A stretch of DNA of 64,000 nucleotides from Bacilli bacterium (GCA_050949315.1 JBMNFL010000001.1:896001-960000); one strand, 5' to 3'. Positions 1 to 10,201 are shown, counted from the stretch's first letter. The notes: generated by a model from the sequence alone, not told the origin. Made by a program: numbers and translations.

Positions 1-101
1 ATTGCAAAAAGACATTCATGTCGTATTCCAGCCGTAAAAACCGTTTTTGTAGCAGAGATTGCTTTTATAAATTTAGAGCAGAGAAGTTTGCATTAGCTTG
101 A
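1..101 (+). CDS. 3' fragment of a Cys-rich (zinc-finger-like) element protein, truncated by the window edge
   Basis: Frame from nt 3 reads CKKTFMSYSSRKNRFCSRDCFYKFRAEKFALA-stop(TGA). The C...FCSxxC pattern is typical of proteins upstream of LSR pairs. Confidence 0.6.
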   Translation, partial: CKKTFMSYSSRKNRFCSRDCFYKFRAEKFALA

Positions 102-188
102 AAAATAATAAAAATAATCCCGGGAAAGGAGCGAGCCCATGCAGATTTTCGTTGTGAATTTGTGTGTACTGTACGCATGGGCATTATC

Positions 189-359
189 ATGCTGAATAAA
201 AATGAATTAATGAATGAAGCCAACTACCTGGCATCGGTAAAGATTGCTAAAGTGCTCCTGAATGCCGGTTTTGTGACTGAAGGGGAGTACAGCATAATAT
301 GCACAAAATTAAGAGCCGAATACCGGCCAATAATCTACAGTTTATTATCCGGAGAATGA
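189..359 (+). CDS. Small SHOCT-like protein of the recombinase module (start uncertain)
   Basis: NEANYLASVKIAKVLLNAGFVTEGEY resembles the SHOCT pattern (LLxxGxITxxEY). Lies directly upstream of the LSRs. Confidence 0.65.
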   Translation: MLNKNELMNEANYLASVKIAKVLLNAGFVTEGEYSIICTKLRAEYRPIIYSLLSGE

Positions 360-360
360 C

Positions 361-390
361 TTGCTATTTACTACTTATTGAGTTATATAT
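361..390 (+). promoter_or_regulatory. Putative sigma-A promoter for the recombinase genes
   Basis: TTGCTA-17 nt-TATATA, followed by RBS GGAAGGAG at 411-418 and ATG at 425. Confidence 0.45.
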
Positions 391-424
391 AGGACGACCC
401 ATAATATATAGGAAGGAGTTCTCC

Positions 425-1702
425 ATGAACATTGAGACCATTGAAGCTAAAACGGTGATACAGCCCAGGTGGAAACGAGTAGTTGCCTATGCGAGAGTTT
501 CAGTTGAAGACGAGCGATTGACACGTTCCCTGAAAGCCCAGATACAGCACTATAGCGACGTGATACCTGCCACCAAGGGCTGGAAGTTTGCCGGGGTTTA
601 TTCGGACGAATATATAACCGGAACAAAGAGTGAACGACCCGGTTTCCAGAAAATGATGGCTGACTGTGAAGCCGGCTCAATAGATATTATCCTTGTGAAA
701 TCCATATCACGACTTTCTAGAAATACGGTTGACCTGCTTGATACATGCAGGCGTTTGAAGAACCTGGGAATTGAGGTTCGATTTGAAAAAGAGAATATAA
801 GTACATTTACCTCAGATGGGGAGCTGATGTTAAGCCTGCTTGCATCCTTTGCCCAAGAGGAAAGCCGCTCAATATCCGAAAATGTGAAATGGGGCATCCA
901 TAAGGGCTTTGAGAAAGGCCACAGCACCCATTACAACGTTTACGGTTATCAATATAACGGAAAGGAATACAAGATTGTACCAGAGCAGGCTGAGGTGATA
1001 AAGCAAATCTACGCCGGTTTCCTTGCCGGAGGAACTGCTGAGCAGTTGGTTAAGCAGTTCAACACAAAAGGCATTCCCGGACCAAAAGGGGGGAGCTTTA
1101 ATGCCGGAGCGGTCCGTAGAATTCTCACCAACCTATGCTATACAGGCGATAGCCTTCTACAGCGGGAATACATTGAAAACCACATTACCCATAAACGAAA
1201 AAAGAACACCGGGGAGCTTGCCATGTATCTGGTCGAGGGCACTCACCCGGTGATTATTTCAAAAGAGACCTATGAGGCGGTACAGGCGGAGTTGGAGCGT
1301 CGAAAGGTCCTGGGTCGGGACTCGGAGTTCTACCAGCGTAACTGGTATACTCGAAAAATTTACTGTGGAGAGTGTGGCGCTACTATGCGGCACATGGACA
1401 AGGCTGCATTTAATGGCGGCCGACGTGCCGGAAGTTTTGTATGCCGGATAAAAGACCGGAAGGGAAGTGCATCCTGCTGTTCTGAGCGAATTTCAGAGAG
1501 GACATTCAAAACAATCACAGCTGAGGTTCTTGATATAGATGAGTTTACACCGGTAGACTTTACCGAAAAAGTAACTCGGGTGACGATTTACAAAGACCAC
1601 AGGATGGTTTATGAGCTTCCGGGCGGAGAACAGATTACTAAAACGTGGATTAAGGAGGGAAGACAGAGTGAAAAACGTAACAATAATACAGCCGAAGATT
1701 AA
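425..1702 (+). CDS. Large serine recombinase 1 (resolvase, recombinase and zinc-ribbon domains; short C-terminus)
   Basis: YARVS catalytic motif, SISRLSRN, AQEESRSISEN, CGECG...C zinc ribbon. RBS supports a start at 425 rather than 299. Confidence 0.92.
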   Translation: MNIETIEAKTVIQPRWKRVVAYARVSVEDERLTRSLKAQIQHYSDVIPATKGWKFAGVYSDEYITGTKSERPGFQKMMADCEAGSIDIILVKSISRLSRNTVDLLDTCRRLKNLGIEVRFEKENISTFTSDGELMLSLLASFAQEESRSISENVKWGIHKGFEKGHSTHYNVYGYQYNGKEYKIVPEQAEVIKQIYAGFLAGGTAEQLVKQFNTKGIPGPKGGSFNAGAVRRILTNLCYTGDSLLQREYIENHITHKRKKNTGELAMYLVEGTHPVIISKETYEAVQAELERRKVLGRDSEFYQRNWYTRKIYCGECGATMRHMDKAAFNGGRRAGSFVCRIKDRKGSASCCSERISERTFKTITAEVLDIDEFTPVDFTEKVTRVTIYKDHRMVYELPGGEQITKTWIKEGRQSEKRNNNTAED

Positions 1703-3218
1703 CCAATTAACAAAAGCAGTGGCAGAGCAGAAACAACTCAGACGGGTTGCCGGATATGCACGCGTATCAACCGACCGGGATGAGCAGTTCACAAGCTACG
1801 AGGCCCAGGTTGATTATTATACCAGATACATTAATGAGCATGAAGGCTGGACCTTTGTAAAGGTTTATACTGACGAAGGTTTGACCGGTACCAGCACCAA
1901 GCGACGCGTCGGCTTCAACGAGATGGTTCGGGACGCACTGGACGGAAAGATTGATTTGATAGTCACTAAGTCAGTCAGCCGGTTTGCAAGAAACACGGTA
2001 GACAGCTTGGTTACCATCCGCAAGCTTAAAGAAGTTGGCTGCGAGTGTTATTTTGAGAAAGAAAATATTTATACATTTGACGGAAAAGGTGAATTACTGC
2101 TGACTATCATGAGTTCCCTGGCACAAGAGGAAAGCCGGTCGATTTCTCAGAACGTCTCTTGGGGTATGAGAGAGAGCATGCGCCAGGGTAAGGCTTATGT
2201 TCCATACAGCATTTTCCTTGGTTATGACAGGGGAGAGAATGGCGAGATGGTCATAAACACTGAGCAGGCAGTGATTGTCCGCCGTATTTACGGAATGTAC
2301 CTGCAGGGCCTTAGCCCTAACCGTATTTGCAAGATACTGACCGATGAGAAGATTCCATCTCCGGGCGGCAAAGATAAATGGTTCATTACTACGTTGAACA
2401 GCATTCTCACAAACGAAAAGTACAAGGGCGATGCGCTTCGTCAGAAGACCTACACAAAGGATTTTCTTTCCAAACAGAAAATCAAGAACGACGGAGACAT
2501 GCAGCAGTATTATATCACTGACCACCATGAGGCTATTATCCCGCCGGAGATTTTTGACCGTGTAAAGCGCGAGATGAAACGCCGTGGTACTTTGGGAGAG
2601 AGGCGTTCCGGTGGTCAGCTGTTTTCACAGAAAATAAAATGTGCTGACTGCGGTTCCTGTTTTGGACCTAAGACTTGGCACCCCCACACTAATTACACCA
2701 AAATCATCTGGATATGCAATGACAAGTACAAGAAAACAAAGAAGAAGTGCTCCACACCTCATTTCTACGAGGATGAGTTAAAGGCCATCTTCGTTTCCGC
2801 GCTGAACCAGCTTATAACCGACAAGAAGAGGATTATATCGGTTTTCGATGCTATCAAGGATACGGTTTTCGGAGTTCAAGGTTTTAAAGCTGAAGCAAGC
2901 AGCCTAAACAGCGAAATTAAGGTAGTTGCCGGCTTGGTCGCGGAAGCTCAGGATGCCGGGAACGAAGGAACGATAGACGGACTGCTTAAAAGGTATAAAA
3001 TTGCGCAGACCAGGCTGGAAGAGGTCCAGAAGGAAATGGAGGACCGTCTCCTTAGGAAGTCTGAGGTAGACGGCTTTATCCGGAAGCTGCATGCCCAGGA
3101 GTCATTCATCACAGAGTTTGACGAGGACCTCTGGTACACCTTGGTAGATTATATGACTGTCTACGCAAAGAACGACGTTCGGGTGACCTTTAAGGACGGA
3201 ACAGAGATAAAGGCGTAA
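1668..3218 (+). CDS. Large serine recombinase 2 (with zinc ribbon and coiled coil)
   Basis: GYARVSTD, SVSRFARN, CADCG...C...C zinc ribbon, C-terminal coiled coil. GTG at 1668 follows RBS AAGGAGG; overlaps LSR1. Confidence 0.93.
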   Translation: MKNVTIIQPKINQLTKAVAEQKQLRRVAGYARVSTDRDEQFTSYEAQVDYYTRYINEHEGWTFVKVYTDEGLTGTSTKRRVGFNEMVRDALDGKIDLIVTKSVSRFARNTVDSLVTIRKLKEVGCECYFEKENIYTFDGKGELLLTIMSSLAQEESRSISQNVSWGMRESMRQGKAYVPYSIFLGYDRGENGEMVINTEQAVIVRRIYGMYLQGLSPNRICKILTDEKIPSPGGKDKWFITTLNSILTNEKYKGDALRQKTYTKDFLSKQKIKNDGDMQQYYITDHHEAIIPPEIFDRVKREMKRRGTLGERRSGGQLFSQKIKCADCGSCFGPKTWHPHTNYTKIIWICNDKYKKTKKKCSTPHFYEDELKAIFVSALNQLITDKKRIISVFDAIKDTVFGVQGFKAEASSLNSEIKVVAGLVAEAQDAGNEGTIDGLLKRYKIAQTRLEEVQKEMEDRLLRKSEVDGFIRKLHAQESFITEFDEDLWYTLVDYMTVYAKNDVRVTFKDGTEIKA

Positions 3219-3490
3219 TTCGTATGCTGCTTTATAGATGCTTTTAGAAGCAGAACTGTACACACCCGCACAAGCAGCGGTAGGTGTGGAACTGCGACAA
3301 GATAACCACTTGCCACTGCATAGTTATGTGGATTTTACCGCTAAACCTCCGTAAAATTGGCAAGGTTTTTTGCATCCTTTTTGAATTTATGCTGTTTTTT
3401 ATCCCTGCAAAACTTGTAGAAATATATTTTGAAAAAATTGCCTTTGTTCAATAGGCATTATTTAAGCGTAGAAAATAATGCTTTTAAACA

Positions 3491-3534
3491 AAAAAAGAAT
3501 GTAGCATACTTATAAAAATGCTATATTCTTTTTT
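3491..3534. terminator. 17-bp inverted repeat; probable bidirectional terminator near the element end
   Basis: AAAAAAGAATGTAGCAT-10 nt-ATGCTATATTCTTTTTT, with one G-U pair. Confidence 0.65.
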
Positions 3535-3562
3535 AACATGGTGTTGAAAGGATGGAAGATAA

Positions 3563-3638
3563 TACACCCTGTCAATAAACTAAATCGACACCCTGTTTTG
3601 AAAAGTGACACCTACTTAAAAAATAGACACCGACACCA
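3563..3638 (+). repeat. Five short (G/T)ACACC direct repeats just inside the inferred right att site
   Basis: ACACC at 3564, 3588, 3608, 3627 and 3633; the first two extend to ACACCCTGT. Confidence 0.55.
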
Positions 3639-3686
3639 ACGTTTTTATAAAAATCGTTTTCAAGCATCAAAATCGATAGTACCTTT

Positions 3687-4361
3687 TTCTCAATGAACTC
3701 AACTGTCACAGCCACCAATATGAAAGTTAAAGTAAAAACCACACATCACTTACAGATTAAAGAAGCTCTCGAGGGTACATACGGTGAAGAAGTTGATTTT
3801 GATGATACCGCAACAGCATATGTCCCAACCTCCTGCGATAACACTAACGAAACCTTAAAATGGTATAAGGTTAAGAATTATACTGGTATCAGTTATACAG
3901 AAGGAACTTATCACGTAGATAACACAAGATTTGAAGAAGCTAGCGCTGGCGATTATTACAAAAAATCAGTAAAAATTAAATCGGTTTCTGCTGATGCTGG
4001 TAATTTAGTAGCACTTTTTAATGTTACAGGGGATGACGAACATGCTGTTTCACCATCTTTGAGAGTTATGTTAGTATATGGAGCTAGCGTAAAATATATT
4101 TATACCCCTACTGGTGTTAGAGATTCATATAAGGCTATTAAAAATCTTAAAGAAGTAGATAAAGCAGAAGAGGGTGAAACCATAGTTGTTAGCGGTGATA
4201 CAAGCGTCTTAATTAGCGAATTAACTGCTGATCAAGAGTATACAATTGATATTTATATCTGGTATGAAGGTCAAGATACTGCTGCCTGTCAATCAGAAAA
4301 TATGGAAGCTGGCGCAACTACTGGGTTAACTGTTGGTATTTCATTCGTTGTTGATGACTAA
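3687..4361 (+). pseudogene. 5'-truncated SipW-class (TasA/camelysin-like) secreted protein; signal peptide missing (ORF 3693-4361)
   Basis: FSMNSTVTATNMKVKV is identical to the region after TYAW in the downstream paralogue. In-frame TAA at 3648, with no hydrophobic leader or RBS. Shares PTSCD, WYKVKNxTGI and YIWxEGQD motifs with the paralogue. Confidence 0.75.
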
Positions 4362-5136
4362 TGATAAAAAAGTTAAAAAATTATTTGCCGCTGTTGCAAC
4401 ATTAGGTTTAGCGCTTGCCGCTACGGTCGGATCAACCTATGCCTGGTTTTCTATGAACTCAACTGTAACGGCAACTAATATGAAAGTTAAAGTGGAAGCT
4501 CAGAAAAACTTATTAATTACCACGACATCTGGGAGTTATGTTGGCGGTCCAACAACCGTTGATCTTTCAATAGATAAAGATACTTTAGTCCCCACGTCTT
4601 GTGATGCCACTCAACCAAGCTTGAACTGGTATAAGGTTAAAAATTCTACTGGTATTAATTTTTCATCAGGAGCAAAGGGTGATGATACTACTTTTCAAAC
4701 GGCCTCAGCGACTGAAGGAGACTATGTAAAAACAACATTCTATATCAAATCAGTTGGCGAAGGTGCTGAAAGTTTAAGGGCTGCTGTTTCAGTAATGGCA
4801 GGAGGGGGAGGAACCCATATAGTTGATAGAGCTTATCGCGTTTTAGTTGTTGTCGATGCTGAAGGTGCTAGTAGAAAAGTTTATGCTCCAATTGCAGGTC
4901 ATTCAACAGGGTATTACACTATTAAAGGTGTTGATGTCAATGATAAGCCACAAATGAGTACGGGAACAGTTACTCCCGATGTAGCGGATAATGTTATTTT
5001 GGCAGAATTAGAGGCTGACACCGAATATACAGTGGATGTTTATATTTGGTGTGAGGGTCAAGATGACGCTTGTACATCTCTAAACGCTGTAAGTCTAACA
5101 CCAACAACCTTCCAAATTGCCTTAACTGTTGAATAA
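4354..5136 (+). CDS. SipW-dependent signal-peptide protein (TasA/camelysin-like putative fibre subunit)
   Basis: KKVKK + hydrophobic core + GSTYAWF is a SipW-class signal peptide. Beta-rich mature part. ATG at 4354 overlaps the end of the upstream paralogue. Confidence 0.82.
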   Translation: MTNDKKVKKLFAAVATLGLALAATVGSTYAWFSMNSTVTATNMKVKVEAQKNLLITTTSGSYVGGPTTVDLSIDKDTLVPTSCDATQPSLNWYKVKNSTGINFSSGAKGDDTTFQTASATEGDYVKTTFYIKSVGEGAESLRAAVSVMAGGGGTHIVDRAYRVLVVVDAEGASRKVYAPIAGHSTGYYTIKGVDVNDKPQMSTGTVTPDVADNVILAELEADTEYTVDVYIWCEGQDDACTSLNAVSLTPTTFQIALTVE

Positions 5137-5152
5137 GAAGAACAAAATTTAT

Positions 5153-5186
5153 AAGGGGTTTTACGGAGCCGCAAAGCCCCTTTTTC
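5153..5186 (+). terminator. Intrinsic terminator after the fibre-subunit genes
   Basis: AAGGGGTTTT...AAAGCCCCTT stem followed by a T-tract. Confidence 0.7.
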
Positions 5187-5199
5187 TTAAAAGTTTATT

Positions 5200-5270
5200 A
5201 ATTTAGCAAAACCATGGAAACATGGTGACGCAAAGCTATAGGGTCTAAATAGACAGCCAGTTGCAAATTT
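5200..5270 (+). ncRNA. c-di-GMP-I (GEMM) riboswitch aptamer
   Basis: AGCAAA-ACCATG-GAAA-CATGGT-GACGCAAAGCTATAGGGTCTAAA...CAGCCAGTTGC matches the class I consensus: GCAAA, GAAA tetraloop, GACGCAAAGC, CTAA receptor. Confidence 0.92.
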
Positions 5271-5297
5271 CTTTGTCGCTGGCTGTTTCTGTCTTTT
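5253..5297 (+). terminator. Riboswitch expression platform; terminator overlapping the aptamer 3' strand
   Basis: ACAGCCAG (5253-5260) pairs with CTGGCTGT (5279-5286), followed by TTCTGTCTTTT. Confidence 0.7.
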
Positions 5298-5375
5298 AGG
5301 AAGGTAAAAGCCCAAATGATACCGTATTTTCTAGTCAAAAGTTCATTTATAAACGCGTTTGACTAATAAAAATTA

Positions 5376-5405
5376 TAGACAAGGGCGTTTTAACTATACT
5401 ATAAT
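5376..5405 (+). promoter_or_regulatory. Putative sigma-A promoter upstream of the first sipW
   Basis: TAGACA-18 nt-TATAAT. Confidence 0.5.
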
Positions 5406-5458
5406 AAGTTTTAGCGAAAGAATTAATAAGTAGCAACTTATTAAAATGAGGTATCAAA

Positions 5459-6223
5459 ATGGAAAAGAAAGCAACAGGAAAAAAAGTTGGGCGTATAATT
5501 GGCAATATCGTTTTTGTTTTATTTCTAGTTTTAATTCTCTTTATTGCCATCACAAACTTGAAAGCCAAATCCAATCATGGAATTCCCAATATCTTTGGTA
5601 AAGGCTTTTTAGAAGTTGCGTCTGACTCAATGAATGGCGATAAGCCCGATTCATTTAAAAAAGGCGACTTAGTAGTCGTTGACGTCGTAGATCTAAACGA
5701 TTCTCGGGTGAAAGAATTAAAAGTTGATGACATCATAACTTATTATGACACTGGTGAAGCTAAAATAATTTCACACCGAATTATTGAAGTAAAAGGTACA
5801 GCGAACATACCAGTATATGTTGTCAAGGGTGACTCGCCCGATGCTGTTAAGACCACAGAGGTTAACTACACTAGCGTTATGGCAATTTATAACCATAAAG
5901 TTGCCGGCTTAGGAACTGTCGTTGGTTGGTTTTCCACGCCGACTGGTTTCTTTATCATCGTCGTCTTACCCTGTGTGGCCTTCTTAGTTTATGAAATTTA
6001 TCATTTTGTCAAGACTTTGACTGCTTATAATAAAGAGAAAAATAAAGGGGCCAGTAAGGAAGTTGAAACTGAACAACTGGTGGCCCTTAGAAAAGAGGCG
6101 CTGGAGGATCTAGTTAAATCTGGAGTCTTGAGTACTGAAGAGGCTGAAACAAAATTGAAGGAATATCAAGATAGTTTAAGTCAGACTGAAGTTGAAGAAG
6201 TCAAAGAAGAAAATAAAGAATAA
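5459..6223 (+). CDS. sipW: Signal peptidase I, SipW/archaeal-ER type (S26B)
   Basis: N-terminal TM, VASDSM (catalytic Ser), GDLVVV, ISHRII (His), KGD, second TM and a charged tail. Confidence 0.87.
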   Translation: MEKKATGKKVGRIIGNIVFVLFLVLILFIAITNLKAKSNHGIPNIFGKGFLEVASDSMNGDKPDSFKKGDLVVVDVVDLNDSRVKELKVDDIITYYDTGEAKIISHRIIEVKGTANIPVYVVKGDSPDAVKTTEVNYTSVMAIYNHKVAGLGTVVGWFSTPTGFFIIVVLPCVAFLVYEIYHFVKTLTAYNKEKNKGASKEVETEQLVALRKEALEDLVKSGVLSTEEAETKLKEYQDSLSQTEVEEVKEENKE

Positions 6224-6270
6224 CAAGAAAGGGTAAGCAATTGCCCTTTCTAAATGAAGGGGTTGGTCTA

Positions 6271-7890
6271 ATGGACGGTATTAATAGATTCGCACAATAT
6301 TTCATGGATTTTTGTTCTAATGTTTGGGAACAAATTAAGAGTTTTTTTGTTGCCTTTTATAATATTGTAGCGGATGTCTTAGTTCGCAATCACATTTCTA
6401 ATTTTCGTATAATCGGGGAATATGCTGATAAGTTCACCGTTTTATCTTGGATTTTATTTGTGTTTATTGAAGCGCTTATTTGCGCCTTTTTAGTTTTATT
6501 AGTTTGGAAGATTGTCCAATTATTGAGTCGTTGGCTCAAGTTTAGACGCAAAGAAGTTGACAAAGAAGATCTTCTAATTGAAATCGCCAAATTAAAAACG
6601 CAAGTAGTCAAAGTTACTAGAGAAAAGGATCGCATTCTTTCTTTACAACTCGGCAGTGGGGGAGGACTTGTCGATACTGAGAGTTTAAATCTTGGTCCTA
6701 GTTTAGTTCCCTCAACAGCCCTAGACACGATTCCGGATACTACAGAAATTGTTAGCACCACTGAAAGCAAGGATGAATTAGCGCAGGTTGTTAGCGATTC
6801 GCGCTTCTCAAAACTAATTTTAGTTGATGAAAAATATAAAAATGGTAATTATGTTGTGACCATGACGGCGGAGGATATGGTTGGTTTACCAGAACTGGTT
6901 GCCCGCTTTGTCAACTATTCAGCCTCACAACACAAGTTATTCTATACCCCTAAGACCATTTCTAAATATGTGGCGGGGTTAGCTACTTCTAAGATTATTA
7001 TTCTTGAAGGTATCTCGGGTACAGGTAAAACCTCTTTACCCTATGCCTTCTCCCGTTTCCTTAAGAATCAAGCGGTTATTGTTTCTGTTCAGCCTTCTTG
7101 GCGTGATCGGACTGAGATTTTAGGTTATCTTAACGAATTCACTAAGAAATTTAATGAGACCGATTTCTTAAAAGCCGTTTATGAGGTTTCTTATCGTGAG
7201 GATGTTAACACTATCGTGCTTGATGAATTGAATTTAGCCCGTATTGAGTATTATTTCGCTGAGTTCCTTTCGGTGATGGAAATGCCGGATATCTCTGAGT
7301 GGAAGCTAGATTTAGTACCCACTCAACTACCTGGAGATCCCAAGCACTTAAATGGTGGCAAACTTTTAATTCCCCAAAATGTTTGGTATGTAGGAACGGC
7401 TAACCGTGATGACTCCACCTTTACGATTACCGATAAGGTCTATGATAGAGCCATCACCATCTATCTTAATGAGAGAGCGAAATACTTTGATGCGCCCTAT
7501 ACTGAGCCGGTTAATATCTCCTATGATTATTTAGAAAAGCTCTTTAGTATGGCGGCTGAGAAACATCCGATTTCTTTAAAGGCTCTTCAAAATCTTGATA
7601 AGATTGATGTCTTTATTCAGGATAATTTCAAGATTGCTTTTGGTAACCGTATTCTCAAACAGATTAGAATCTTTGTTCCTGTCTATGTTGCCTGTGGCAA
7701 TACCGAGACTGAGGGACTTGACTTTATGATCTGTACCAAAATCCTTAAAAAGTTTGAGGCCTTAAACCTTCCGTTCTTACGCAAAGAGTTAGAAGAGTTA
7801 ATTTCCTTAATTCAAAAATTATTTGGCAAAGACGCCTTCACCGAATCAATTGCCTATCTGCGCGATTTATTGAAGATGGCGGGCGCTTAG
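6271..7890 (+). CDS. Membrane-anchored McrB-family AAA+ NTPase
   Basis: N-terminal hydrophobic helix then coiled coil. Walker A GISGTGKT, VQPSW, Walker B VLDELNLAR, GTANRDD (McrB NxxD signature), YDRA. RBS supports ATG at 6271. Confidence 0.85.
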   Translation: MDGINRFAQYFMDFCSNVWEQIKSFFVAFYNIVADVLVRNHISNFRIIGEYADKFTVLSWILFVFIEALICAFLVLLVWKIVQLLSRWLKFRRKEVDKEDLLIEIAKLKTQVVKVTREKDRILSLQLGSGGGLVDTESLNLGPSLVPSTALDTIPDTTEIVSTTESKDELAQVVSDSRFSKLILVDEKYKNGNYVVTMTAEDMVGLPELVARFVNYSASQHKLFYTPKTISKYVAGLATSKIIILEGISGTGKTSLPYAFSRFLKNQAVIVSVQPSWRDRTEILGYLNEFTKKFNETDFLKAVYEVSYREDVNTIVLDELNLARIEYYFAEFLSVMEMPDISEWKLDLVPTQLPGDPKHLNGGKLLIPQNVWYVGTANRDDSTFTITDKVYDRAITIYLNERAKYFDAPYTEPVNISYDYLEKLFSMAAEKHPISLKALQNLDKIDVFIQDNFKIAFGNRILKQIRIFVPVYVACGNTETEGLDFMICTKILKKFEALNLPFLRKELEELISLIQKLFGKDAFTESIAYLRDLLKMAGA

Positions 7891-7905
7891 TTGGGGTGCG
7901 TTTAA

Positions 7906-9600
7906 ATGGCAAAGGCAAAGACCAATTATGAGAAACGCTTTTATCAACGCATCTTAAAAGCTATCAATAGAGAAGACGCCAAAGGTTTTTATAAAGAATT
8001 TAATAATGCGATTAAAAGTGGCAAAATGACCATTAGCCAGATGCGGACCAAGAGTCAGCTTTCTTTTGATGCGACTTGGATCAATGTTATTACCAGTTAC
8101 TTACCATATCTAGAGAAGATTGTTCGCAATCCTAGGATCTATATGGAAGCCATCGAGATGGTAACACCAATTCAATCAGCCAAGAAAATCACCGCTCGTT
8201 CCGTTCAGCATCTTTCAGCCAATGTGCAAAATGTTCAAGAGATTCGTAGTGATGGAACCATCGTTCCTTCTAAGGTGTTATCCACCATCTACGAAGACAC
8301 GATGAATATCTATGAAAACCGCTTTATTATGACACTTATTTCTAAACTGGCGGCTTTTGTGGAAGTGCGTTATGAGCAAATTGCTGAAAAAACGGAGTCC
8401 TATCAAACCGATTATTTAAGAGTTCAAGATGTCTTTAAGTGGCGAAACTATGATATTGAAGCCAATATTGATTTAAAGGTTAAAGAACAGGTTGAGGATG
8501 AAGAAAGTCAAAAGAATTTAGAACTCGTCGAGGATATCAGAACCATCCGTAGTTATGTACGGGGTTTTATGCAGTCGGCTTTCTATCAAACCATGAAGGA
8601 AAGTCGGGCGCGAGCCGTTAATCCGCCGATTCTAAGGACCAATATCATTGTTAAGTCAGTTGAATATAATAGTTGTTTAAAATTATGGCAGTTCTTAGAT
8701 TCCTATCGCCAACTTGGGGTCAGTGTTGGTGTCTTTGATAAGGAACTGGATTTTGATGAAGACTTTGTCAATAAGGTCAGCGATATGTTAATGCTGAATT
8801 ATTCTTTAATCACCGAGAATCAAGCTGATCGTGAAGACACTTATAATCTTTTGCCCTATAAAAAGCGTAGAGAAAAAGAAATACGCTTTAGTAAGACCGA
8901 ATTAGTTGTTGAGGAAATGCTGGATGAGGATGCCGATATTAAAGCCGTTCCCCCTACTATTTCCGAATACTACTATCAAAGGATGAAGCAGATTTCAAAG
9001 ACCAACTTCACTAGACAAGTGAATTCCGGTATTTCTTATAATCGTTCCTTTTTAAATATTTATAAGAAAATGTTAAAAATTGAAAATGGTGTGCAAAAAG
9101 AAATTCTACAAGGTCTTGAAAAAAGATTACGTAAAAGATATCCAACTAAGATAAAATCCGCCGCCAAGGTCACTTTTTTGAAAAGAGTTCGCTCAATTTA
9201 TAAATCGGTGATTTTAATTAAGAAAGCCGACTTAGAAAGCGCGGAGGCGAAGTTAAGAAAAGCCGAAGCCGATCTTGAGAAAAACATGGCTTTAATTAAA
9301 CCTGAAACCAAAGCTTTCCGCAAGAAAGAGCGGGAAAAAGCGGCGCGCCGGGCTAGAAAGAAAGCTCGGGCCAAGGGCTTACCAGTACCGAAGATGAAAG
9401 ATTTAATTAAAGAGGAAGAAGAAGAGCCAATCATTGATCTTCCCGAAGTTGACGATGAAGATCTTTCTGAAAGCGAATTATTAGCTAGTGAGGATGAAGT
9501 CGTTAAAAAGCCCGTAAAAAAGGCGGTAAAGAAAGGCGAACCGGAGCCGATTGATGTCGTCATTGTTAAAGCTAATGAGGATGAAGAGGATGAAGAGTAA
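7906..9600 (+). CDS. DUF2357 (McrC-like N-terminal domain) protein with coiled-coil and basic/acidic tail; no evident nuclease domain
   Basis: KKITARSVQHL, PSKVL...NIYENRF and RTNII...YNSCLKLW motifs. Follows the McrB-like gene. C-terminus is low-complexity K/R-rich then E/D-rich. Confidence 0.75.
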   Translation: MAKAKTNYEKRFYQRILKAINREDAKGFYKEFNNAIKSGKMTISQMRTKSQLSFDATWINVITSYLPYLEKIVRNPRIYMEAIEMVTPIQSAKKITARSVQHLSANVQNVQEIRSDGTIVPSKVLSTIYEDTMNIYENRFIMTLISKLAAFVEVRYEQIAEKTESYQTDYLRVQDVFKWRNYDIEANIDLKVKEQVEDEESQKNLELVEDIRTIRSYVRGFMQSAFYQTMKESRARAVNPPILRTNIIVKSVEYNSCLKLWQFLDSYRQLGVSVGVFDKELDFDEDFVNKVSDMLMLNYSLITENQADREDTYNLLPYKKRREKEIRFSKTELVVEEMLDEDADIKAVPPTISEYYYQRMKQISKTNFTRQVNSGISYNRSFLNIYKKMLKIENGVQKEILQGLEKRLRKRYPTKIKSAAKVTFLKRVRSIYKSVILIKKADLESAEAKLRKAEADLEKNMALIKPETKAFRKKEREKAARRARKKARAKGLPVPKMKDLIKEEEEEPIIDLPEVDDEDLSESELLASEDEVVKKPVKKAVKKGEPEPIDVVIVKANEDEEDEE

Positions 9601-10201
9601 GAAGGGCAAGTATCTCAAAAGAATCGCTTTAGTTCTTCTTGAATTACTCATCCTTTATATTGTTATTAAAGTCGTTATTGGGGTGGCGACAAATAGTCCA
9701 GTAAATGTCTTTAATCACTATGTCTTCGTTGTTAAGACGGAGTCGATGCAAGACTTTATTAACCCGGGGGATATCGTTTTTATCCAAAAGTGTCAGATTG
9801 ATAAGGCGCAAATAGGCGATGTCATCTCCTTTACTTGTATTAACCCCACTCAAACTATTTATGGTAGTAACATCATCCATCGCGTAGTTGATAGAGAAGT
9901 TGTTGATGGCCTTATAAGACTAACAACTAAAGGCGATGCCAATGTTATTATTGATGAATACCAAGTTACTGGGGCCAACTTTGTCGGCCGAGTTACCCTA
10001 GTATCCCCCTTCCTAGGCCGCGTCTTTAATCTATTTGTCAGTACTTACCTTTCTTTATATCTAATTGTTCTTGTTCTACTTTTATTTGTTATTGTCAGTG
10101 TGATTAAACGTATGATCAAGTTAGTAAAAGAAGAGCATAGACAAAAGGAAAAAGAGAAAATCAAAGAAGAAATTCTAGCCGAAAAAAGAAGAGGAGAATA
10201 G
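9590..10201 (+). CDS. sipW: Second SipW-type signal peptidase I
   Basis: VKTESM (Ser), GDIVF, GDVISF, IIHRVV (His), TKGDAN, two TMs. Overlaps the DUF2357 stop. Confidence 0.87.
   Translation: MKSKKGKYLKRIALVLLELLILYIVIKVVIGVATNSPVNVFNHYVFVVKTESMQDFINPGDIVFIQKCQIDKAQIGDVISFTCINPTQTIYGSNIIHRVVDREVVDGLIRLTTKGDANVIIDEYQVTGANFVGRVTLVSPFLGRVFNLFVSTYLSLYLIVLVLLLFVIVSVIKRMIKLVKEEHRQKEKEKIKEEILAEKRRGE

Follow-up and report, generated by a model that had tools for sequence, protein, structure and literature searches.

A prophage with two large serine recombinases probably exchanged the body of a fibre-subunit gene behind a host signal peptide

We analysed a window of 64,000 nucleotides of DNA (positions 896,001-960,000) from the genome of a Bacilli bacterium, which consists of a single 1,011,443-bp contig with a GC content of 37.7%. 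A block of 46,413 bp between equivalent junction positions (genome 853,286-899,692) is inserted in a fibre-subunit gene, with its right 3.7 kb at window 1..3692 and its left 42.7 kb upstream of the window. At the right end of the block the subunit gene has lost its start and signal peptide, while at the left end these host parts are joined in frame to a different, complete subunit body. Our favoured explanation, which we consider probable, is that a tailed temperate phage with two tandem large serine recombinases integrated at the F-S-M-N codons of the host gene, here called B, and thereby swapped the subunit body.

Results

The displaced subunit gene and its intact paralogue

The displaced host body, B', occupies window 3693-4361 on the plus strand as 222 intact codons, with its ATG at 3693, its stop codon at 4359-4361 and no internal stops, and it is without a ribosome binding site (RBS), start context or signal peptide. 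Its first residue is the M of the F-S-M-N motif. Window 3675-3698 (GAT AGT ACC TTT TTC TCA ATG AAC) encodes D-S-T-F-F-S-M-N, and an in-frame TAA lies at 3648-3650, 5' of the B' reading frame. A sequence-only reading of this DNA had described a beheaded paralogue beginning S-T-F-F-S-M-N, with a stop at 3648 and 222 codons intact, and we found each of these details again on re-reading the sequence. The intact paralogue, C, follows on the same strand (window 4354-5136), its start overlapping the B' stop codon, and has a hydrophobic leader of its own, 30 residues long and ending in GSTYAW, after which the protein continues as FSMNSTVTATNMKV. The codons across this boundary are GGA TCA ACC TAT GCC TGG TTT TCT ATG AAC (G-S-T-Y-A-W-F-S-M-N).

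B' and C share 45% identity over 203 to 214 residues. Four full-length, leader-bearing proteins of 252 aa (P0001 and P0007-P0009) differ from B' at only 1 to 4 of 222 residues, and the likeness of B' to fibre subunits is therefore not due to chance. A search of 41 species genomes with B' matched two, namely its own genome and one weak match, and the search of metagenome loci gave no near relative (best match 42%).

Fibre operon and relation to known fibre proteins

Two signal peptidases I of the SipW/archaeal type are encoded on the plus strand downstream of C in the same operon. The first (window 5459-6223) scored 57.7 bits with TIGR02228 against a cut-off of 51.85, and 86.7 with the Bacillus SipW model, below the cut-off of 190; the second (window 9551-10201) scored 68.1 bits with TIGR02228 against the same cut-off of 51.85. 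A promoter-like site with 11 of 12 consensus matches lies 5' of the first peptidase (window 5376-5405), such sites being no more frequent in the region than expected by chance and no commoner in our promoter scans than in shuffled sequence. Between the two peptidases (window 6241-9600) lie genes for an AAA protein (weak AAA_5 and AAA_22 matches) and a DUF2357 protein, a pair kept at this place in three distant organisms (also L071 11833-14851 and L179 5657-7999). We know of no proposed role for the AAA/DUF2357 pair in fibre assembly.

A, B and C (A being the chimeric protein described below) matched no Pfam or NCBIfam family, including the TasA/camelysin sequence family, and a profile search of PDB sequences returned no relevant match. 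The AlphaFold model of A (pLDDT 86.5) has a beta-rich body, with residues 21-40 of low confidence and no secondary structure. The TasA fibre structure (8aur_A) ranked among the best structural matches of this model; the comparison gave a Foldseek E of 1.6e-3 and a Z of 6.3, under the noise mark of 8, with an rmsd of 3.7 over 149 residues, and tied with unrelated beta-sandwiches. In TasA, subunits are linked by a donor strand made of the first residues that follow the SipW cleavage site (PMC9674648). By analogy, the conserved WFSMNxxVTAT would be the donor strand of the present proteins.

A chimeric gene at the left end of the block

The 5' part missing from B' was expected by the sequence-only reading at the far end of the element, as the other half of the gene. 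A host leader with RBS, start codon and signal peptide was indeed located at genome 853,190-853,273, 42.8 kb before the window begins, but instead of a half-gene we found it fused in frame to a complete other body. Leader and 231-residue body together make a complete chimeric open reading frame of 259 aa, A (L001 7190-7969), which is followed by a strong terminator with a 13-bp stem. The leader of A is identical at 32 of 32 residues to that of the B proteins from relatives without the element. Similarity of A to B' reaches only 46% over 28 residues (E 0.17), and A and C are ~30% identical.

The fusion of the host leader to a complete and different body indicates that the element replaces the subunit and does not only silence it, and the intact 259-aa gene with its own terminator contradicts the earlier proposal that the element merely switches the subunit off. 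That proposal amounted to a simple interruption that brings no new body and leaves just the leader half of the gene at the far end, a model that would account for a beheaded B' beside recombinase genes. Six-frame regular-expression scans and tblastn, however, recovered only two leader-type sequences in the genome, those of C and A, both belonging to complete genes and the far one standing on the 231-residue body with its 13-bp-stem terminator. The same scans detected no leader half-gene elsewhere in the genome (one weak match at 5754-5891, E 0.02), and simple interruption is thus highly improbable.

Upstream of the subunit genes is a 255-aa protein with one N-terminal hydrophobic helix (L001 6400-7167, genome 852,400-853,167). 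It is also observed 5' of subunit genes in four other loci (L013, L116, L120 and L179), has no family match and may be an accessory or anchoring subunit.

We identified 518 homologues of A in the protein collection and compared the leaders of the best 120. Among these, 118 had other leaders, mostly of the MKKLIPA... type, one was leaderless, and A alone had the host-type leader. The few homologues with names came from Clostridia metagenome-assembled genomes. A profile of the A family, built from 43 of 132 proteins hand-picked to span the identity range, matched 21 of 300 genomes of the host's class, with a full-length match in this genome only. A relative of the host (L013, an 877-kb contig whose upstream gene is 66% identical) has three subunit genes with host-type leaders, and their likeness to A stops after the leader and first mature residues. 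Since the B body carries the host leader in element-free relatives, and A's nearest listed homologues have no host-type leader, the A body was more probably brought by the insert than resident before it. The GC3 of the A body (0.26) is close to that of B' and C (0.23-0.25) and far from that of the phage core (0.52), a composition more in keeping with long residence of the gene in a low-GC lineage than with an origin in this phage. One contig from sequencing run X18 has the host leader on a variant A-like body, and in a second contig a diverged body end leads into the same downstream element sequence.

Content of the inserted block

A high-GC island (42-57% GC) extends over genome ~854.1-899.6 kb. 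The left part of the block holds, in order, the A body with its terminator, an IS256 element, a truncated ODP gene, and genes for a 1,509-aa response regulator, a DUF2326 protein and an ABC-3C CTD11 protein. The right part continues with an HNH endonuclease, an SNF2 helicase, PolA, a primase-polymerase/methylase, TerL, portal, a ClpP-type protease, HK97 capsid, tail genes and the two recombinases. The set of phage genes is complete, with structural and replication genes both present inside the block, as in an integrative prophage.

Both recombinases are encoded on the plus strand at the right end, and in each the catalytic resolvase, recombinase and zinc ribbon domains scored above the Pfam cut-offs. 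Recombinase 1 (425 aa, window 425-1702) matched Resolvase at 1.5e-34, Recombinase at 2.2e-23 and Zn_ribbon_recom at 7.6e-6; it contains the YARVS motif, and its nearest NCBIfam models, CcrB and XisF, were far below their cut-offs. Recombinase 2 (516 aa, window 1668-3218), with values of 7.4e-32, 7e-23 and 3e-11 for the same three domains, shares 35 nt with the recombinase 1 gene and is the nearest gene to the right junction, 474 bp off. These matches agree with the earlier identification of the genes upstream of B' as serine recombinases. Besides the IS256 transposase, no other recombinase was found in the block. The IS256-family element (Transposase_mut 3e-115; L001 8157-9489, genome 854,157-855,489) has an 8-bp target duplication, CACCAACG, and is missing from an X18 contig (alignment entry "skips 1345, both 8"), and we therefore regard it as a secondary insertion. 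A 44-nt imperfect palindrome (window 3491-3534; 86% opposite-strand self-match over 44 nt) lies between recombinase 2 and the motif array described below.

Other cargo was observed in the left part of the block. The 1,509-aa protein (L001 11170-15702, minus strand) combines receiver, PAS, EAL, HAMP, GGDEF and HD-GYP domains. An EAL protein is likewise carried by an unrelated recombinase element (L122 3216-5327), both elements pairing c-di-GMP enzymes with a fibre-gene target of biofilm type. The DUF2326 protein lies beside the ABC-3C CTD11 protein (L001 16699-19725, minus strand), by appearance a defence-type pair.

In viral collections, relatives of recombinase 2 (47-63% identical) were found at 27 loci, none of which contained a gene of the subunit family. 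The A body had no match among 50,697 phage records and matched one irrelevant locus in the viral collections, and an A-family homologue (P0097) had no match among plasmid records.

Relatives without the element

Eight proteins, four of 252 aa (98-99.5% identical to B') and four of 253 aa (73%), have the B body immediately behind the leader MKLSKKLFAAAATLGLAVAATVGSTYAW, and all eight begin MKLSKKLFAAAATLGLAVAATVGSTYAWFSMNSTV. A total of 24 sequencing runs were listed for window 1-9000, four of which were aligned to L001 4000-10000. Nine runs (X1-X9) contain 0.95-1.00 of the words of window 1-9000, while another nine from five studies (X12-X20) contain 0.53-0.58, which equals the host part alone. 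Contigs from X12 (22,277 bp) and X14 (10,075 bp) each cover L001 5035-7293 with 3 mismatches, followed by 667 other letters and then by a 93-nt match to L001 7201-7293 with 17 mismatches. The first of these numbers is the exact length of window 3707-4373, which covers what remains of B' and reaches the corresponding position in the C leader, and the second is the exact count of differences between the A and C leaders, from which we read the order upstream gene, leader, B and C with nothing between. Judged from these alignment lengths and mismatches, the empty-site contigs are without everything from L001 7294 to window 3706. Depth in X12 and X14 was zero over L001 7417-8019, an observation that counts only jointly with the bridging contig.

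Element-free relatives (the eight proteins, X12 and X14) thus have an intact leader and B gene and do not share the truncation, one of the two points on which the sequence-only reading had staked its model. Together with the two recombinase genes, the empty sites bear out its central claim of a serine-recombinase element inside a subunit gene, at the boundary of leader and mature protein. As these relatives have the gene intact, excision would be expected to return an intact B gene.

An assembly artefact, in which the phage was misjoined to the fibre locus at the conserved motif, has to be weighed for a single-contig metagenome assembly in which the motif occurs three times. However, all sampled words of window 1-9000 (100%), those of the junction among them, were present in seven runs, and a 1,110-bp contig from an independent assembly (X11) spans the left junction with 0 mismatches. 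Within the protein collection, the chimeric A protein was found on 8 contigs and B' on 7. An artefact is hardly credible in view of these observations.

The junction core

The right junction core (attR; window 3687-3706, plus strand) is TTCTCAATGAACTCAACTGT and the left junction core (genome 853,274-853,293) is TTCTCTATGAACACAACTGT. The left junction reads ...GCTTGG TTC TCT ATG AAC ACA ACT GTT ACT... and the right junction ...ACCTTT TTC TCA ATG AAC TCA ACT GTC ACA..., with 18 of 20 bases identical in the core, no similarity leftward and only weak body homology rightward. Precise insertion relative to the empty site, with a short core common to both junctions, again matches an integrative prophage. 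Two details of the sequence-only reading had to be revised. It placed attB in the T(Y/F)AWF-coding motif, while the junction falls in the F-S-M-N codons and not in T(Y/F)AW; it also took the S-T-F before B' as the counterpart of S-T-Y-A-W, but AGT ACC TTT differs from the true leader's TCG ACT TAT and there is no homology left of TTC TCA.

The 12-nt core in the F-S-M-N codons (TTC TCW ATG AAC) is the most conserved DNA of the fibre family, with no more than 2 mismatches in 78 of 79 distinct family genes. Crossover is resolved to within 20 nt and no finer. The X12 and X14 contigs seem identical to the left junction to L001 7293, with the base A at 7286, which would place crossover in CAACTGT; the database proteins with leader and B body encode Ser at the variable codon, which would place it in ATGAAC. 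Dyad symmetry of the modelled junction sites was at chance level (best 10-13 of 24).

The same breakpoint in other DNA

Unrelated sequence meets subunit bodies at the same boundary elsewhere. In P0006, found on one 3.3-kb contig, a body identical to B' follows unrelated upstream sequence, joined at ...S|FSMN; the 58 residues upstream had no relative in this genome, the examined loci or the protein collection. In L122, an IMG/VR provirus, a different recombinase (35-39% identical) and the EAL cargo are followed by a leaderless body joined at ...RYAW|FSMN. Relatives of recombinase 2 occur at 55 species-genome loci, and the sole one in a fibre locus, L179, is also by far the closest. This locus, from a Clostridiales metagenome-assembled genome of another species (its operon AAA gene is only 68% identical to the host's), contains a 186-bp fragment of the recombinase 2 gene (L179 2801-2986) with 99.5% DNA identity, between a complete and a beheaded subunit gene. 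The fragment begins right after the subunit stop codon and runs into the final two thirds of a second subunit body, and from its sequence may be either a decayed relative of the present element or a chimeric join. A further candidate, L071, was set aside: its recombinase lies 9.6 kb from a subunit gene, but that gene stands behind a normal host operon.

Constant leaders on variable bodies were observed in metagenome loci. One identical 27-residue leader occurs in 20 loci (L019, L025-L027, L029, L032, L034-L036, L042, L049-L051 and others) on 19 different bodies, with a median identity of 35% over the first 60 mature residues, bodies that may be paralogues or strain variants. A second leader occurs in eight loci on 8 different bodies.

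These leaders bear on another origin of the junctions, namely Campbell-type homologous recombination in which a subunit fragment carried by the phage exchanged strands with the host gene, with the recombinases serving another site or none. Identical leaders on many bodies in other species suggest frequent recombination at the boundary, and the two junctions are 18/20 alike with weak homology into the bodies. Against this, P0006 and L122 reach the same boundary with unrelated flanks, and the recombinase genes adjoin the junction, as integrase genes usually do. A stretch of 20 nt with two mismatches is also very short for recombination of the RecA type. We therefore hold homologous recombination to be quite improbable.

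Repeats and motif arrays flanking the phage genes

A 19-nt exact repeat is present at genome 854,139 and window 3626. When IS256 is removed, the repeat extends to a 36-bp unit composed of 19 identical, 7 variable and 10 identical bases. One copy, ~170 bp after the A stop codon, is split by IS256 (L001 8139-8156 + 9490-9570 region), and the other (window 3626-3661) lies 26 bp before the right junction. Both copies are inside the insert and have direct orientation, flanking the phage proper. Each is surrounded by arrays in which the recombinase side has GACACC-type motifs and the opposite side AATCGTTTTC motifs; the array at window 3562-3680 (plus strand), which includes the 36-bp unit, has ACACC-type and then AATCG-type motifs at ~20 bp spacing. 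AATCGTTTTC occurs 7 times in the genome, 4 of these in the insert against 0.3 expected. The 19-nt repeat had 0 matches in the viral collections, and GACACC or AATCGTTTTC motifs were absent downstream of the 62-64% identical recombinase 2 relatives in L133, L166 and L169. The arrays could be operators, iterons or a second recombination site.

The repeats allow a history in two steps, in which a module of the A body, its terminator and ~150 bp was already resident, either left behind by an earlier element or as a cassette of the host, and the phage integrated later at a 36-bp unit. The phage would then end at genome 854,139 and 899,661, and its recombinases would today have no action at F-S-M-N. 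The direct orientation of the units around the phage proper fits such a history, as do their equal spacing once IS256 is removed, the host-like GC and GC3 of the A body and spacers, and the failure to find an attP form with the A body in the protein collection, viral collections and phage records. However, both copies are alike in the arms and differ in the centre, the opposite of a hybrid att pair, so that the pattern is more like binding sites in pairs, or like a duplication on either side of the A module, than like hybrid att sites. Both motif types also belong to ~20-bp arrays enriched in the insert, and the supposed host site would thus itself be phage-like. Entry of the A module at F-S-M-N would still be precise and loss-free, and would again need an element of this kind. 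In addition, the A module without phage appeared in no run or protein, and the runs with junction words all seem to have the recombinase part. We regard a two-step history as unlikely, and continue below with integration of the phage at the F-S-M-N codons.

Discussion

Mechanism of the exchange

In the mechanism that we propose, a circular phage would carry the promoterless, leaderless body A with its own terminator just behind the attachment site. Its recombinases would catalyse integration at the F-S-M-N codons that follow the SipW-type signal peptide, adding a block of 46.4 kb with its cargo, IS256 having entered later. On the left side, body A would come to stand in frame behind the host promoter, RBS and signal peptide, giving the 259-aa gene, and A would be made from the host promoter and exported. 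At the right junction, B' would be left with no start or leader and be cut off from the promoter together with the translationally coupled C, so that both are presumably silent. The first peptidase would keep its own promoter-like site at 5376-5405, which is a consensus match only. Because integration fuses the host leader to A and beheads B', lysogeny would exchange one fibre-subunit type for another, with a return to B on excision. No circular or attP form and no leaderless A were seen (A's protein cluster, which has one member; phage records; viral collections), nor did the gene content reveal a directionality factor. The exchange may serve to replace a receptor or antigen, or only to keep the operon working.

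Possible consequences

If this mechanism is correct, a lysogen would display another fibre. The phage might in this way abolish the receptor that it uses itself, or alter the antigenicity or biofilm properties of its host, aided by the c-di-GMP cargo. The 36-bp repeats and second recombinase might then let the phage leave while the new body stays, a hit-and-run conversion, and the one leader on 19 bodies in another species might be the population-level trace of such swaps. It would represent lysogenic conversion by re-splicing of a structural surface gene at the DNA level, and a concrete mechanism for the pattern of constant leaders and variable bodies in the little-known SipW-linked fibres of anaerobes. 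The junctions would also provide candidate natural attachment sites for serine recombinases, in frame at a signal-peptide boundary. We raise more tentatively, as a doubtful generalisation, that a class of phages or islands uses the codons of the F-S-M-N donor strand as a universal attachment site, each with its own promoterless body, and so re-splices host fibre genes.

Comparison with known systems

Disruption of genes by prophages, their restoration when the prophage leaves and the patching of a few codons are all known, while the patch in the present case is a whole divergent mature protein. The closest likeness for the patch is element e14 in icd of E. coli, which supplies a substitute gene end, with the displaced icdC kept at the other junction and recombined on excision (PMC13626634). 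Both here and in icd, an intact junction reading frame consists of a host part and an element part, and the displaced fragment is kept at the other junction. The e14 substitute, however, is the last ~50 codons, near-identical and with function preserved, whereas here all of the mature protein is substituted (231 of 259 residues), and by a divergent body, A being no near-copy of B'. The junction also differs in position, lying here at the 5' end behind the signal peptide. Phage 21 integrates in icd of E. coli in the same way as e14, and e14 uses a tyrosine integrase, in contrast to the large serine recombinases found here.

Interruption of a gene by an element with a large serine recombinase is known from SPbeta, which splits spsM, the gene being restored on excision. 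The prophage-like element skin likewise splits sigK with restoration on excision (PMC5025042). Here too a prophage-like element with large serine recombinases interrupts a gene of which an intact allele exists without the element. Skin and SPbeta leave two dead halves and no replacement, and their excision is tied to sporulation, whereas the element described here provides a replacement body.

Surface proteins with a constant 5' part, comprising promoter and signal sequence, and alternative promoterless bodies are found in vsa of Mycoplasma pulmonis and pilE/pilS of Neisseria. Their cassettes are resident and shuffled by inversion or gene conversion, unlike the body proposed here, which would be phage-borne, with the old one parked at the other end. 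Serotype-converting phages such as Shigella SfI resemble our case in that lysogeny alters a host surface structure; the phages of this type encode modifying enzymes, whereas here the structural gene itself is re-spliced in the DNA. Our literature search, whose coverage lay outside subscription journals, returned no report of a prophage fusing its own protein body to a host signal peptide. The arrangement is a combination of two known kinds, gene completion like that of e14 in icd and gene interruption like that of skin and SPbeta.
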